A DNA stretch of 64,000 nt, taken from positions 1 to 64,000 of IMG/VR virus record IMGVR_UViG_3300042314_001189. One strand, 5' to 3'. Under the pieces are notes generated by a model that did not search any database, was not told the DNA's origin, and saw nothing but the letters and a program-made list of their open reading frames with translations. Every line of letters starts with the position of its first letter. The stretch's first letter is position 1. The position numbers and the translations under genes were made by a program. Below, piece after piece: positions 2,840-12,826 of the stretch. This stretch comes from a virus.

Positions 2840-4021
2840 ATGGCAAATAGATTTACAACATACGTATTAAAAAATAGCGATATTGTTAACAGACCTTTAC
2901 CGTCTGGGTTATTAAAAGGTGAACCAATTGTAAATACTGCTGAAGGTATCATGTATTTTTCTGGTGTTACAACTTCAACACCAGAATGGGTTACTGGTTC
3001 AACGGCTGGGGTTTTTGAGGTTGGTTCCAATCTTTACAATTTAAAAATTAGAAACCAAATAACATCGTATAGCGGTGTTACAAACTTGGCTGGGAAATTC
3101 CTTTCTGGTACTACTAGTGGGTTTGTTTTGGCTGATGTTACAAGTATACAAGGTGTTGATTCTTATGTTACTGGTGGTACATTCAGTAATAATACTTTAA
3201 CACTTAGACTTAATGAAGGTAAACCAAACGTACCAGTTACTGGTTTTACAGATTATTACACAACTGGTGCTACTCTTATTGGTAGTGTAGCTTATTTTAA
3301 GAGAAATGATGATTTGAGTGGGTATACTTTAGATTTATCAAGTTTTTCCCCTTCTGGTGATACATATGTAACTGGATTTACATATACATCAGCAACAAAC
3401 ACAATTTATTTACGTCAAAATCAAGGACAAGCAGAAAGAAGTATATACATTGATAGTCTTAGTGGTTTATCGTTAACTAACTTAACTTCTGGTAGAGTTG
3501 TTTATGTTGGTTCTGGTGGTGCTTTGACTGATGAAGCTGGATTTACTTACGATGCTGGAACAAATACGTTATCAGTTCCTTCAGATGGTGCTGTAAGTGT
3601 TGGTACTGGTGGTTTGAATGTTGCTGGTAGTGCGGTTATTCAAGGTGATTTAACTGTATTTGGTTCAGCAATTTCCGCTTTTACTAGCCAACTATATGTT
3701 GAAGACCCTAACATTACGCTTAACTATAACCCAACTGGAAATACAACAGCAACTTCTTTGGGTGCTGGTTGGACGATTCAAGACGGAAATGGTGTAAACG
3801 GTGGTAATGTTAATTTAGACATCAGAAGTATGGATACTCTTACTGGGTTGACTGCTAGTCAAGTTCCAAGTATTGCAGAATATACAGCATCTACTGGTTA
3901 TGCAAACAGAGGTTTTGTAACTCAATTGAATGACATCGTAATTAGAAGCACAAACATAACAACGCCAAATGGTGTTAGAGTGTTAGCAGAATTCGATATT
4001 TTAGATGGTGGCACATACTAA
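2840..4021 (+). CDS. Fibre protein (Mtd_N-like N-terminal module)
   Basis: LLKGEPIVNTAEGIMYF N-terminal module; T/G/S-rich; VEDPNITLN motif; ends ILDGGTY. Confidence 0.65.
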   Translation: MANRFTTYVLKNSDIVNRPLPSGLLKGEPIVNTAEGIMYFSGVTTSTPEWVTGSTAGVFEVGSNLYNLKIRNQITSYSGVTNLAGKFLSGTTSGFVLADVTSIQGVDSYVTGGTFSNNTLTLRLNEGKPNVPVTGFTDYYTTGATLIGSVAYFKRNDDLSGYTLDLSSFSPSGDTYVTGFTYTSATNTIYLRQNQGQAERSIYIDSLSGLSLTNLTSGRVVYVGSGGALTDEAGFTYDAGTNTLSVPSDGAVSVGTGGLNVAGSAVIQGDLTVFGSAISAFTSQLYVEDPNITLNYNPTGNTTATSLGAGWTIQDGNGVNGGNVNLDIRSMDTLTGLTASQVPSIAEYTASTGYANRGFVTQLNDIVIRSTNITTPNGVRVLAEFDILDGGTY

Positions 4022-4049
4022 AGATTTACTTTAAAAATACAATAATTAT

Positions 4050-4079
4050 AATATGCACAATTCAACGATTGTGCATATT
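4050..4079 (+). terminator. Perfect 12-bp hairpin (terminator or processing stem)
   Basis: AATATGCACAAT-tcaacg-ATTGTGCATATT followed by TATTTT; its 3' arm overlaps an ATATTTAT motif. Confidence 0.6.
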
Positions 4080-4087
4080 TATTTTAT

Positions 4088-4154
4088 ATCGGTTACATAA
4101 TCGATTTGGATAAAATAACTCTATATAGAGCTTTGAAATAAACCATAGATATGG
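4088..4154 (+). promoter_or_regulatory. Array of three 5'-UTR hairpins with UANAUA loops; the third occludes the start codon of the 4151 gene
   Basis: ATCGGT-TACATA-ATCGAT (4088-4105, one G.U pair), CTC-TATATA-GAG (4119-4130), CCA-TAGATA-TGG (4143-4154, contains ATG 4151). Confidence 0.65.
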
Positions 4155-6946
4155 CAAATAGAAAAAATACGTTATTACTTAAACGTTCAAATGTTGCTGG
4201 GAAAATTCCAGCATCTGGCGACCTTTTGTTGGGAGAGCTAGCAATAAACACAGCGGATGCTATTTTATACGCATCTGGTACAACATCAAATACAATTTTA
4301 CCGATAGGTTGGGACCGAGTGTCTAGAACTGGTGATACCATGACTGGTACGTTAAATGTACCAACAATATCTGCAACAACTTATCTGAATCTACCAACAA
4401 CAACATTTACTGGTGGTACAGTAAGTGGTGGTACTGTTTTCTTAAACGGTGTTACTGCAAATACTATATCAAATGTTGATTACATAAATTTTAAAACATC
4501 ACCATCTGTTCCAAATCCAACTGGTGGTACATTATATTTTGACTCAAATGAAAACGCATTGTCATATAAACCTTTGACTAATCAAAATGACGTTACAGTA
4601 AATTTAGGACAAGAAAGTTTAATTAGAATTTATAATAATTTAGGTTATCAAATCAATAATGGACAAGTTTTACACATAACTGGTTCAACTGGTGGTATTC
4701 CAACAGTTGCTTTGGCAAATGCTTCAAAATTAGGTGTAACGTTTACTGATAGTTTAGCTCAAACTTCTGGTGTCGCAACGCATGACATACCAAGTGGTCA
4801 ATATGGTTTTATGACTAATTTTGGTGTGGTAAGGGATTTGAACACGACAGCTTTTACGACTGGACAAGAAGTGTTTTTATCTGATACTGTTGATGGTGGG
4901 TTAACTAACGACCCAAACAATATAGCATTCACATCAAGAATCTCAACAGTAGGTTATTGTTTGGAATCAAACGCAACCACTGGTAAAATACTTGTAGTAA
5001 TCACAAACGAAAACCCACTCCAAAGTTTAACACAGCAAGAGATTAACGTACTTTTAGGTAACACAGTATCAACTGGTGCTTATTTTTATACTGGTGCAAC
5101 AACCGCATCAACAACAACCATAAATGTATCACCAATGAGAGGTTGGATTGTTTATAATACAGGTCCAACATATGCAACAAACCCATTGGTTTTAAATATC
5201 TATTATAGTGGTGGTACAAATTTACCAGTTACGGGTTTAACTAGTTCATTTGATACTTATTTATTGGTTAATAGTGGTGGTACACTATATCAAACAAATA
5301 CATACCCAACACCACAAGAAAGAAGACAAAATATATTTTTAGGTAGAGTTGTTCACCCAAATAAAACAACAATACTTAATATTGAACAAAGTGTTGATTA
5401 TGACGTTTCACCGTTATCATCACTTCGTGATTTATGGGTCCCTATAAAAATTATTAATGAAGGTGTGGTGCCAAGTCCTAATGGTGCTACTTTAACATTT
5501 AAAACCTCATCTGGTACTTTTTGGGGTAATGGTATAGGTTTTCCAACGGATGAATTAAATCCTAATGCAATTACAGTTCCAGGATATCTTCCAGCTTCTT
5601 TTTATTATACAACACAAACTGGTGGAACATTTACAGCGACAACCACAACTGTTGATACATTAAATTATGATGTTAATGGTGTGATAACAAATGTACCTGG
5701 AGCTGGTAACTATACGACACAAAGAATTTATATGTCTCAAAGTGGTGTCATTAGATTACAATACGGACAAAATTTTTATTCAACATTGGCAAAGGCAATT
5801 GCCGCAATACCAAGCGAAACTTTTGTAGTTAACCCAGATAACTCAATTGATTGTATATTGATTGGTTTATTAACTGTAAAAGATGGTATTAGTGATTTAA
5901 GTAATGTCGATGATGCTGTATTTACCTTTGTTTCAAAATTTGGTGAGGTGTTAGGTGGTACCGCTGGTATATCAACAACAACATTACAACAAGCATATGA
6001 TAATTCAGTAAACCCAGAAATTGTTACTAATTCTACATTAAACGGTGTACAATTTAAAGGTGGTACTGGTAATGATAATGATAAAAATATCATAATAGAA
6101 ACTAATAGTGGGACAGAAACTGGTTATTGGTTGGCTAATGGTGGTTTGTTAGCCAGTAATCTTACAGCAACAACAATATCCGCAACAACATTAACAACAC
6201 CATCATTTACCGCAAACACAAATGGACTGGTTGCAAGTACTGTTAAAGGTGTTTATGTTTCACCATATGTTACAGTAGGAGCAGCATATACAGCAACAAC
6301 AGCAAATTCAACAATCGAAATAAGTGGTGGTACATTTACATTGACATTATATACAGCTGTTGGTAATAGTGGTAGAACTATTTATATCAAAAATTCTGGT
6401 AGTGGGATTGTTACAGTAGATGCTAACGCTTCAGAAACAATCGATGGGCAATTAATAAGACCGTTAGGTACATTTGAAGATTTACTGTTGCAATCAAATG
6501 GTGCTAACTGGGTTATTTTAAATAGAAAACCAGTTGTTATGCAATTTTCACATGATTCCCAATCGGTAATAACACCAGCAGATGCGACTACATATTATAT
6601 TGGTAATTTCACTGTGGCTGACCCAGCAACTACTTCTGGTGCTACTAGACAAGTTATTGCTTTGTCATCTGGTTGGGTGAGAAGTGCTACTTTGATGATT
6701 TCAGTTGCTGGTACGTTAGCTTCCGCTCAAAATAGCACATTTTCTTTGAAAAATGTTACAACTGGTGCTGATTCCATCATTTCTTCAACAGTTGCACATA
6801 CATCAGCGGCTCAATTACTGTCATTTACATTAGCAACACCTATGTTAGTCACAAAAGGTGATTTGTTACAAATAAATTGGAGAACGCCAACTTGGGGAAC
6901 GAACCCAAGTTCTGTTAGACAATATTTAACCGCATTAATCGAATAA
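4151..6946 (+). CDS. Long fibre / receptor-binding protein
   Basis: N-terminal LLLKRSNVAGKIP...GELAINTADAILY (Mtd_N-like); cement-like GVATHDI...GQEVFLS segment; T4 gp9/10-like GRTIYIKN...ETIDG...LQSNGANW segment near the C-terminus. Confidence 0.75.
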   Translation: MANRKNTLLLKRSNVAGKIPASGDLLLGELAINTADAILYASGTTSNTILPIGWDRVSRTGDTMTGTLNVPTISATTYLNLPTTTFTGGTVSGGTVFLNGVTANTISNVDYINFKTSPSVPNPTGGTLYFDSNENALSYKPLTNQNDVTVNLGQESLIRIYNNLGYQINNGQVLHITGSTGGIPTVALANASKLGVTFTDSLAQTSGVATHDIPSGQYGFMTNFGVVRDLNTTAFTTGQEVFLSDTVDGGLTNDPNNIAFTSRISTVGYCLESNATTGKILVVITNENPLQSLTQQEINVLLGNTVSTGAYFYTGATTASTTTINVSPMRGWIVYNTGPTYATNPLVLNIYYSGGTNLPVTGLTSSFDTYLLVNSGGTLYQTNTYPTPQERRQNIFLGRVVHPNKTTILNIEQSVDYDVSPLSSLRDLWVPIKIINEGVVPSPNGATLTFKTSSGTFWGNGIGFPTDELNPNAITVPGYLPASFYYTTQTGGTFTATTTTVDTLNYDVNGVITNVPGAGNYTTQRIYMSQSGVIRLQYGQNFYSTLAKAIAAIPSETFVVNPDNSIDCILIGLLTVKDGISDLSNVDDAVFTFVSKFGEVLGGTAGISTTTLQQAYDNSVNPEIVTNSTLNGVQFKGGTGNDNDKNIIIETNSGTETGYWLANGGLLASNLTATTISATTLTTPSFTANTNGLVASTVKGVYVSPYVTVGAAYTATTANSTIEISGGTFTLTLYTAVGNSGRTIYIKNSGSGIVTVDANASETIDGQLIRPLGTFEDLLLQSNGANWVILNRKPVVMQFSHDSQSVITPADATTYYIGNFTVADPATTSGATRQVIALSSGWVRSATLMISVAGTLASAQNSTFSLKNVTTGADSIISSTVAHTSAAQLLSFTLATPMLVTKGDLLQINWRTPTWGTNPSSVRQYLTALIE

Positions 6947-6957
6947 AAATATTTATC

Positions 6958-7395
6958 ATGATTTTAGGAAAATACAAAATAGAAGATTACATCGTTACAA
7001 TAAATGGTGTTGATGAAACCAGACAAAAGGTTACGTATTACAATATTGAAGGTGAGGAAGTTTCAGTTACTAGGTTTAATGGTAATTACGATGAGATTGA
7101 TTCAAATTATTTAAGTTTTGACGATGTACCTTTAAAAGTAACTAGGTGGCAATTTAGAACACAGTTGGCTTTCATGCCTTCTACAGACCCTAATTTTGAT
7201 AACCTAAGAGATTTGGTTTCATATATGATAACTCAAATGAGTGGTAATGAAAAAGTAAAAGCAGAAGAGGCTTGGACTAGTGCTAACTATATTAGCAAAT
7301 ATTCACCGTTGGTTTTATCTATGGCGCAAGCTTTAGGTTTAAGTGGTTCAGATGTTGACCAGATTTTCATTGAAGCGTACAAGATAGAAATTTAA
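6958..7395 (+). CDS. Fibre-associated small protein (probable fibre assembly chaperone)
   Basis: VTRWQFR...W..A..I....PLV..MAQALGLS..DVDQIF.EA pattern typical of genes following phage fibres. Confidence 0.55.
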   Translation: MILGKYKIEDYIVTINGVDETRQKVTYYNIEGEEVSVTRFNGNYDEIDSNYLSFDDVPLKVTRWQFRTQLAFMPSTDPNFDNLRDLVSYMITQMSGNEKVKAEEAWTSANYISKYSPLVLSMAQALGLSGSDVDQIFIEAYKIEI

Positions 7396-7550
7396 TTTAT
7401 CTCATCACCATAGATATCTTTTTTGGGTGTACATTTTTCTTTGATTAATTTTTCAACAAAAGAAAACATTTTCAAACCGTTACTTTCACAATATTTCTTT
7501 AAAAGCTCATGTGTTGCTGGTGTTATTTTTATGTTTTTATCCCTTTTCAT
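7392..7550 (-). CDS. Ribbon-helix-helix (Arc/CopG-like) DNA-binding protein, 52 aa
   Basis: Below the track cutoff. MKRDKNIKITPATHELLKKYCESNGLKMFSFVEKLIKEKCTPKKDIYGDEIN: alternating beta strand, helix, G turn, helix. Confidence 0.75.
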   Translation of the reverse strand: MKRDKNIKITPATHELLKKYCESNGLKMFSFVEKLIKEKCTPKKDIYGDEIN

Positions 7551-12658: not shown

Positions 12659-12677
12659 AGTTAAAACTTCTTTTATG

Positions 12678-12709
12678 CAAAAGTACTAAAATTTTTTGTG
12701 AAAAACAAA
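12678..12709 (-). promoter_or_regulatory. Bacteroidota-type promoter
   Basis: TTTG-N20-TACTTTTG on the minus strand, 19 nt upstream of ATG 12658. Confidence 0.7.
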
Positions 12710-12826
12710 TTTATTCTCGTGAACCATATATTTATAGGAAAGCGGAAAATAATATTTTTTTTTGAAAAAAATAAATTTTCCAATATTTATAATTAAATAA
12801 GAACAAATTTTTAAAACAAATACGAC

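Follow-up and report, generated by a model that had tools for sequence, protein, structure and literature searches.

A hairpin array ahead of a tail-fibre gene

The DNA considered here (the window) is the first 64 kb, or 64,000 nucleotides (nt), of the 137,444-bp IMG/VR virus record IMGVR_UViG_3300042314_001189, and the element in question is the leader of a gene whose product has PHROG tail fibre matches at 1e-15. Upstream of this gene a terminator-like hairpin and an octamer box are followed by three small hairpins in tandem, here hp1, hp2 and hp3, the last of which runs into the coding region (Table 1). An initial annotation of the sequence had described the three hairpins, their spacing, their shared loop and the use of the start codon by the third stem, and each of these observations was confirmed on the plus strand. 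Successive loops begin 28 and 24 nt apart and all three follow the consensus T-A-N-A-T-A. The A of the ATG (4151-4153) is the last loop base of hp3, and the TG together with the first base of codon 2 lies in its stem.

Table 1. Coordinates of the fibre leader and associated features within the window
Feature	Position	Strand	Description
Intrinsic-terminator-like hairpin	4050-4079	+	13 pairs, 4-nt loop, T-rich tail; from scan and fold
Box ATATTTAT ("late motif")	4075-4082	+	presumed late promoter element
hp1, ATCGGT-TACATA-ATCGAT	4088-4105	+	6 pairs, one G·T; core GGT/ATC with one G·U
hp2, CTC-TATATA-GAG	4119-4130	+	from scan and fold
hp3, CCA-TAGATA-TGG	4143-4154	+	from scan and fold
Tail-fibre gene	4151-6946	+	931 amino acids (aa); conserved N-terminal module (MANRKNTLLLKRSNV...)
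Possible fourth hairpin, ACGTT...AACGT	4169-4186	+	inside fibre coding region, codons 7-12

Folding with RNAfold gives each hairpin as a stem closed by U-A around a 4-nt loop, with pair probabilities in the leader of 0.73-0.97 at 37 °C. The predicted stabilities of the isolated hairpins hp1, hp2 and hp3 are -3.9, -1.3 and -1.2 kcal/mol at 37 °C, and -7.2, -3.4 and -3.3 kcal/mol at 15 °C. Hairpins of this type, counted on both strands as at least 3 pairs with G·U allowed around a TANATA loop, number 35 in the whole 137,444-bp record and are clustered nowhere but in the fibre leader; simple arithmetic from the record density leads to an expectation of ~0.009 hairpins per 67 nt. With the loop loosened to TNNATA, 133 of the 2,748 100-nt windows of the same record hold one hairpin and 7 hold two. 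Because the motif was defined after the array had been seen, the real test lies in the comparative data.

Conservation in related phages

Relatives were taken to be loci in IMG/VR contigs with orthologous fibre genes, cited below by their L numbers. A protein-guided scan yielded 23 related loci, and all 12 of those that match from fibre residues 1-4 have the box and then two or three hairpins with the same loop type and other stems. A second scan, which used the N-terminal protein alignment alone and whose selection was blind to the leader, gave 80 loci with 69 distinct leaders. At least two hairpins are present in 32 of the 37 leaders with a G+C content below 0.30 (3 of the 37 have none), and at least one is present in 9 of 11 leaders of intermediate and 5 of 21 of high G+C. 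A DNA pattern that fixes only the box and hp1 retrieved 75 stretches with 59 distinct matches. These comprise 44 fibre leaders, 2 sites ahead of an endonuclease gene, 12 matches of other kinds and 1 that is truncated; every one of the 44 fibre leaders has further hairpins outside the pattern, either one (16) or two (28).

Across 120 distinct leaders there are 205 hairpins, compared with 13.6 ± 3.7 (maximum 24) in 200 mononucleotide shuffles. The 86 AT-rich leaders divide into 43 with at least three hairpins, 23 with two, 5 with one and 15 with none. Distant relatives, which use Shine-Dalgarno sites or have leaders of 35-60% G+C, still carry one to three such hairpins (e.g., L062/69/78, L088, L092/102/103, L061, L065/74/75, L073, L098/91, L100, L104 and L072). 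Throughout the family the box, where present, lies at -45 to -82 from the ATG.

Covariation of the stems and constancy of the loop

Alignment A2 comprises 61 of the 120 leaders, preselected for the box and at least two hairpins. Over its 13-pair structure 82.6% of cells pair, a percentage that the preselection inflates, versus 24-43% when the partner is slid by 1-3 columns, and double-sided changes occur at 11 of the 13 pairs (91 cells). None of 500 shuffles reached any of five covariation measures, although such counts are not probabilities and overstate independence because the sequences are related. In orthologues hp1 appears as GGT/ACC, GGAT/ATCC, GAGT/ACTC or AGGC/GCTT, and hp2 as CTC/GAG, CCC/GGG, CCT/AGG, CTTC/GAAG, TCC/GGA, TTC/GAA or ACTC/GAGT; at its three core pairs hp2 has both partners altered in 8, 22 and 14 of the 61 sequences. 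RNAalifold predicts hp1 and hp2 unaided, and does not predict hp3.

The 5′ arm of hp3 tracks codon 2 of the fibre gene. The arm and the start-codon strand occur as GTCA/TGAC (7), GTCA/TGGC (23) and ACCA/TGGC (12), and more rarely as GACA/TGTC (2), AGCA/TGCC (2) and CTCA/TGGG (1), with L059 as an exception. A permutation test confined to hp3 gave 63 observed against a mean of 52.8 (maximum 60 of 1000), and is weak because ATGGC is common to most genes. Unlike the stems, which vary freely, loop positions U1, A4, U5 and A6 are nearly invariant in all three hairpins and in the distant phages. Across the 61 leaders no variation is seen in the box (TATTTAT, columns T14-T20), in the ATA of hp1's loop or in the ATG, and the ATA of the hp2 loop is kept in at least 90%. 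The proposal that variable stems would surround a constant loop upstream of homologous fibre genes is therefore upheld among the IMG/VR relatives, with stems that co-vary.

A covariance model built from A2 also finds L088 (E 0.004), L003 (0.05) and L061 (0.09). Judged by these sequence comparisons the array is not a product of chance: a conserved, co-varying structure stands in a fixed position before one gene family, which would place it among cis-regulatory 5′ leaders of a generic kind.

Evidence for action at the RNA level

The pattern of mismatches bears on whether the conserved fold is one of RNA or DNA. The cores of hp1 and hp2, six pairs in all, contain 9 G·U or U·G cells versus 2 A·C or C·A cells, and the two core pairs of hp3 add 24 more U·G cells; the internal non-Watson-Crick pairs are G·T, with A·C and other mismatches located at stem ends. 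The palindromic TATATA loops provide a second comparison, since they can be drawn on either strand. At 72 such sites the longer stem is on the plus strand in 18, on the minus strand in 9, and equal in 45, and the minus-strand stem falls to 2 pairs or fewer in 8 cases while the plus-strand stem never does. The G·U pairs and the strand asymmetry therefore favor the fold of a plus-sense RNA, and the element presumably acts at the RNA level.

Restriction to one gene and one N-terminal module

Within its own record the covariance model finds only 4059-4159 (86 bits, E 2e-11), together with a weak reverse-strand match at the same place (27 bits, E 0.19). Clusters, defined on both strands as at least two hairpins with at least 2 G-C pairs each and no more than 45 nt apart, were collected from 1.28 Mb of loci and the record itself, and all 134 of them are fibre leaders, their reverse strand, or derivatives that bear an endonuclease gene. 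The box ATATTTAT precedes 34 open reading frames (ORFs) in the 137-kb record, mostly at 1-20 nt from the ATG and without a fold after it; the fibre site has 68 nt and a predicted -5.8 kcal/mol. Only two sites exceed this gap between box and ATG, one of them in spacer 12659-12826, where the genes diverge, and one antisense to an ORF of the other strand; of the intergenic sites the fibre gene is otherwise the one with the longest gap. Its folding energy is the lowest of the 34 but for that of a single box site, located inside an ORF.

The gene upstream, 2840-4021, shares its first 48 residues with the fibre gene at 46% identity. In paralogues of this type the box stands 17-32 nt from the ATG and no such hairpin follows it; the few matches listed upstream of them have stems of A/T only. 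In L008 (5803-8844), and also in L016, the fibre body is kept (60% identity from residue 86), but the N-terminus is different, and the L008 leader after the box is open and 17 nt long. Because the paralogue and L008 are without the array, the array goes with the N-terminal module and not with the fibre body or with late genes generally.

The window thus holds a tandem pair of fibre-type genes (2840-4021 and 4151-6946) with one N-terminal module and a hairpin leader on the second only. The L008 fibre provides evidence for module exchange at the N-terminal joint. At four loci a GIY-YIG endonuclease gene (Pfam E 2.5e-8, 235 aa) lies directly behind the hairpin leader: L126:192-899(-), L127:164-871(+), L137:3856-4563(-) and L133:1069-1233(-), the last shortened to 54 aa. 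It took over the first codons of the fibre, whose frame resumes at the end of the endonuclease, and the fibres of L147 and L151 begin MADKI like the endonuclease, as if bearing the scar of such an insertion.

The N-terminal module itself offers few leads. Pfam searches of the fibre N-terminus and eight neighbouring proteins assigned no family to the fibre, including its N-terminus, and with no Mtd_N match the earlier description of the N-terminus as Mtd_N-type finds no support. A profile of the N-terminus found nothing among solved structures below E 0.08. Searching residues 1-90 by tblastn recovered the "long tail fiber protein distal subunit" of Serratia phage 92A1 (51% identity over residues 7-53, E only 4e-5) and the "tail fiber distal subunit" of Klebsiella phage Metamorpho (52% over residues 1-40, E only 7e-4), which suggests a weak resemblance to the distal long-tail-fibre subunit genes of these two isolates.

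Terminator, box and presumed transcript start

The 3′ arm of the terminator-like hairpin overlaps the box, and the hairpin ends the upstream fibre-like gene 2840-4021. Relatives likewise have a G+C-rich hairpin and a T run immediately before the box. The annotation had placed a late motif ahead of the array, and the box is indeed present; its role as a late promoter is presumed. Copies of the box occur at, for example, 779, 2818, 6949, 13475, 59692 and 61420. Because some copies sit only 0-5 nt from an ATG, the box may be no promoter. For so short a gap only leaderless messages or another role of the box would fit: if the box is a promoter, many late messages may be leaderless or nearly so, and if it is not, it may be a start-region signal of another kind.

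The core of hp1 begins 5-8 nt past the box throughout the family, and the RNA presumably starts just before hp1, which would then lie at or near the 5′ end of the transcript. The sole match to a -35/-10-like promoter in the spacer is at 4025-4052, upstream of the terminator, and such matches are no commoner than in shuffles. Metatranscriptome contig pieces on 3400-5000 cover 3400-3558 and, at low likeness, 3977-4011, and none lies over the leader.

Discussion

We observe an array of hairpins, its conservation, compensatory changes in its stems, its restriction to this gene and its linkage to an N-terminal module. Very probably the array is a genuine RNA element that controls the production of fibre and has gone undescribed. 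The reading we prefer, although tentatively, is that of a translational operator, in which the structured leader would throttle fibre translation via the hairpin at the AUG and the shared loop would be the recognition site of a ligand. Nucleotides 4083-4154 would form the structured 5′ leader of a late mRNA for a long-tail-fibre-type gene. Transcription from upstream would stop at the terminator and restart a few bases past the box, and the resulting RNA would open with hp1, run through hp2 and end in hp3. Pairing of the UG of the AUG and the start of codon 2 in hp3, with only the A left in the loop, would lower fibre initiation in a host whose ribosomes need an open, A-rich start region; the leaders of other late genes are short and open. 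The common loop, U-(A/U)-N-A-U-A, is probably a tetraloop closed by U-A and, because all hairpins share it, could be what a single trans-acting ligand, most likely a protein, recognises. Binding of this ligand to the strong upstream hairpins, and cooperative binding to the weak one at the AUG, would set fibre translation or its timing. That the effect is repression and not activation, and that a ligand exists, is what we infer. The suggestion of an RNA operator in the initial annotation therefore survives in part: co-varying stems, a constant loop and an hp3 that follows codon 2 make an operator-like reading reasonable, but a binder is not indicated.

Several points weigh against this reading. 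The transcript, its 5′ end and the ligand are presumed, and the one metatranscriptome run, with 6% of the words of the stretch, yielded two short contig pieces that match poorly and is uninformative on transcription. Some copies of the box are too close to an ATG (0-5 nt) for a conventional leader. At 37 °C hp2 and hp3 are predicted to be weak (-1.3 and -1.2 kcal/mol). Fifteen of the 86 AT-rich leaders are hairpin-free, most of them belonging to the paralogue; L132 and L164 have no hp3, and L059 is mismatched at the third hp3 pair. The strand-asymmetry count is modest (18 versus 9, with 45 equal), the preselection of A2 raises the percentage paired, though not the number of double changes, and the relatedness of the sequences prevents the shuffle counts from being read as probabilities. 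Finally, a purely cis-acting role would explain everything except the shared loop.

Such a role is the strongest alternative, possible but less probable than the operator. The leader would work independently of any protein, with hp1 shielding the 5′ end from 5′-end-dependent decay and hp3 serving as a constant or temperature-tuned damper that sets a low fibre-to-sheath ratio; the loops would be kept for folding and not for a ligand. The family-wide position of the hp1 core 5-8 nt after the box, the occurrence of a long structured leader in this late gene only, the gain of ~2-3 kcal/mol by the stems at 15 °C in a phage from lake water, and the survival of hp3 alone in distant, high-G+C relatives are all consistent with this proposal. 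It leaves unexplained, however, the near-invariance of U1, A4, U5 and A6 in the loop amid freely changing stems, and U-NNAU-A is not known as an extra-stable loop.

An element that acts as DNA is unlikely. The hairpins could be extruded as such or as cruciforms, could be sites of a DNA-binding protein (the small ribbon-helix-helix-like product of the minus-strand ORF 7392-7550, for example), or could be part of a cassette for recombination or homing, by which the leader would move along with the N-terminal module. Many of the sites are perfect palindromes (e.g., the 45 of 72 TATATA sites with equal stems on the two strands), array and module are co-inherited, and a GIY-YIG endonuclease gene stands exactly behind the leader in four loci. 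Cassettes of a promoter and a stem-loop are moreover known recombination sites in T4-type phages (PMC2839356). Yet a binder of double-stranded DNA would keep the half-sites and let the center vary, and the opposite is seen. The internal G·T pairs occur on the plus strand only, the hp3 arm tracks the codon after the ATG, the array is present in a single copy per genome and not as a dispersed repeat, and the small minus-strand protein is found also in the hairpin-free L008 and L016.

We assign the same low probability to a signal for RNA processing or for a co-transcriptional event, in which the A/U-rich loops would be where a ribonuclease of host or phage enters or cleaves, or the hairpins would load RNA polymerase with an antitermination or pausing factor as the late unit begins, in the manner of nut/boxB or put. 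Repeated hairpins with a constant loop, located directly after the presumed start of a unit and behind a terminator, are what such a signal might look like. The tie of hp3 to the start codon in nearly all relatives, including those that use Shine-Dalgarno sites, points instead to translation, and the hairpins are found on no other late unit of the record.

Feedback by a trimer, a sub-case of the operator in which three sites serve a trimeric ligand such as unassembled fibre trimer or its chaperone, was the mechanism first suggested for this array and now appears very unlikely. As self-regulation via the N-terminal module would predict, the array co-occurs with the module and is absent where the module has been replaced. 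But the number of hairpins is not fixed at three: it varies from 1 to 3, and there are distant relatives with one or two. The overlap of hp3, and perhaps of the fourth hairpin, with the start of the coding region would explain the co-inheritance without any binding. The 145-aa gene downstream is not conserved, and by sequence the N-terminus has no relative that is of solved structure or RNA-binding. Chance palindromes in A/T-rich DNA have a negligible probability, since the arguments in their favor (TANATA-like hexamers are common in 32% G+C DNA, 3-pair stems are short, and the motif was defined post hoc) are refuted by the conservation, covariation and cluster specificity in the comparative data.

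The operator reading can be extended, with considerable doubt, to a mobile regulatory unit. The hairpins and the N-terminal module would together form one such unit with a dedicated RNA-binding partner that reads the loop, and fibre translation would be coupled to assembly; candidates for the partner would be a small phage protein or the N-terminal module, the latter while nascent or unassembled. Because hairpins with the same loop occur also in phages that use Shine-Dalgarno sites and in phages of high G+C, it would amount to an ancient translational operator of phages that crosses phyla and has no precedent. If true, it would be a rare case in Bacteroidota phages of protein-controlled initiation without a Shine-Dalgarno site.

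The array shares one or two traits with each of several known systems, and those that were tested each differ from it in a defining feature. The operators of CsrA/RsmA consist of several hairpin-loop sites with a GGA core, one of which overlaps the Shine-Dalgarno or ribosome binding site. The array likewise combines several small hairpins of free stem sequence around a single loop motif, places the last of them over the initiation region and would follow the same logic of cooperative occlusion. Its loops, however, are TACATA, TATATA and TAGATA, and those of relatives are nearly all T-N-N-A-T-A, none with GGA; no Shine-Dalgarno site is overlapped, the likely host group being one that uses none, and the AUG itself is covered. 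The coat-protein operators of the RNA phages MS2 and PP7 are single hairpins with a bulged A and an ANYA-type loop. There too a hairpin that holds the start codon of the regulated gene is read by its loop, whereas here up to three bulge-free hairpins with a U-NNAU-A loop are found in a large DNA myovirus. In the Com/mom system of phage Mu a late gene has a folded start region, and a small phage protein binds an adjacent upstream hairpin and opens the inhibitory fold. The fibre gene resembles mom as a late phage gene with a folded start region and an upstream hairpin; there is no sequence likeness, and the protein opens the fold in Mu, whereas in the array the leader would repress.

Hairpins over start regions are also known from late genes of T4 (of the lysozyme e, soc and I-TevI type), in which the late promoter lies inside the hairpin and the late RNA is open. 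The late box, a hairpin over the start codon and a T4-like set of replication and baseplate genes are common to both, but here the box is ~60 nt upstream of hp3 (5′ arm 4143-4145) and the late RNA would hold the whole hairpin. The promoters of the N4 virion RNA polymerase are DNA hairpins with 3-nt loops at the genome end, read on the template strand. As in the array, three small hairpins stand in tandem, with the loop kept and the stems differing; the present loops are of 4-6 nt, wobble pairing is confined to the coding strand, and the ATG is part of the last hairpin. In the T4-like Serratia phage 92A1 (OR088902.1, L179 300-370) the gene with the same N-terminal module is preceded by a terminator, TATAAATA and then a CCTAT-ATT-ATAGG hairpin that runs into the ribosome binding site, an arrangement similar to that of the fibre leader. 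This single record differs in having one hairpin with another loop, over the Shine-Dalgarno site and not the AUG.

The PeSL cassettes of T4-type phages, a compact unit of a terminator-like stem-loop and a promoter ahead of a gene, are proposed to travel by recombination (PMC2839356), and the present leader also travels with a gene module. PeSLs have early sigma-70-type promoters and G/C-rich terminators and number ~50 per genome, before orphan genes (PMC2839356). The leader studied here occurs once per genome and belongs to a fibre gene; its loops are A/U, and its box is followed by three hairpins.

The initial annotation had not recognised the array as a named RNA family, and the Rfam scan agrees. 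With release 15, over positions 3500-4700 on both strands and E up to 10, there were five matches, all far below the gathering score (the best at 21 bits versus a gathering score of 44), and none is a bacterial or phage leader. A literature search, mostly at the level of abstracts, found no description of such hairpins before fibre genes, and the main text of a paper on freshwater Bacteroidota S21-phages makes no mention of UTR (untranslated region), motif, hairpin or promoter (PMC9723584). The array motif may be among 8,495 anonymous candidates for structured RNAs that were catalogued from intergenic regions of IMG/VR, in a paper whose main text is without mention of tail, fiber or hairpin (PMC10690425).

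How translation is tuned without Shine-Dalgarno pairing in Bacteroidota and their phages is poorly understood, and the leader is a compact, strongly conserved and gene-specific example that can be tested with reporters. It also provides a handle on how large phages keep the dose of receptor-binding fibre below that of other late proteins, although promoters of one kind serve them all. The linkage to an exchangeable N-terminal module bears on the movement of fibre cassettes between phages and, if a loop-specific binder exists, the array and its binder would be a new small RNA-protein pair.

The phage and neighbouring features

The source is a large, uncultured freshwater myovirus. Its 137,444-bp record, with an estimated completeness of 39% and a G+C content of 30-37%, encodes a tail sheath, baseplate hub and wedge proteins, SSB, a UvsX-like recombinase, a DnaB-like helicase and a ribonucleotide reductase, that is, a T4-like replication and baseplate gene set. 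The stretch is present, whole or in part, in 20 of the 22 sequencing runs listed; 19 of these are DNA runs, and all but five of the 19 are labelled lake water or freshwater. Near-identical DNA was not found among cultured phages, and by the sheath the nearest cultured relatives are Flavobacterium phages (36% identity). No Shine-Dalgarno-like sequence precedes the fibre ATG or the other ATGs of the window; the probable host is a Flavobacterium-like bacterium in which translation does without such sites. Phage ribosomal protein S21, considered as a link, is not encoded in the 137-kb fragment.

Several neighbouring genes were considered as sources of a binder. The 2840 product, named as a candidate at the outset, is a paralogue without hairpins before its own gene. 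The product of 6958-7395 (145 aa), also named there, was considered as a conserved partner and set aside: among the loci fetched it has a homologue in a single other locus, the near-identical L014. A 52-aa ORF at 7392-7550 is on the minus strand, opposite to all its neighbours, upstream of and diverging from the sheath gene. Its product is 62-100% identical in 21 related loci, has a match to Pfam RepB-RCR_reg at 19.5 bits, below the cut-off, and looks like a small regulator of the ribbon-helix-helix type; as a hairpin binder it was rejected on account of its presence in the hairpin-free relatives L008 and L016.

The possible fourth hairpin varies among relatives. Its codon pairings include ACG/CGT, CCT/AGG and CTC/GAG, and the Thr, Phe or Leu codons seem to change together with the Arg codons. 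It is missing from more than 10 sequences and occurs in three different registers, and a weak test by synonymous codon shuffling gave a mean z of -0.98, with 13 of 61 sequences at or below 0.05.

Elsewhere in the window, genes 31715 and 33979 are preceded by boxes of the form TAGTATATTTG(T/C)A, at ~31.70 kb and 33.80-33.95 kb. Their likeness to the TAnnTTTG promoter element of Bacteroidota suggests early or middle promoters read by the host polymerase.

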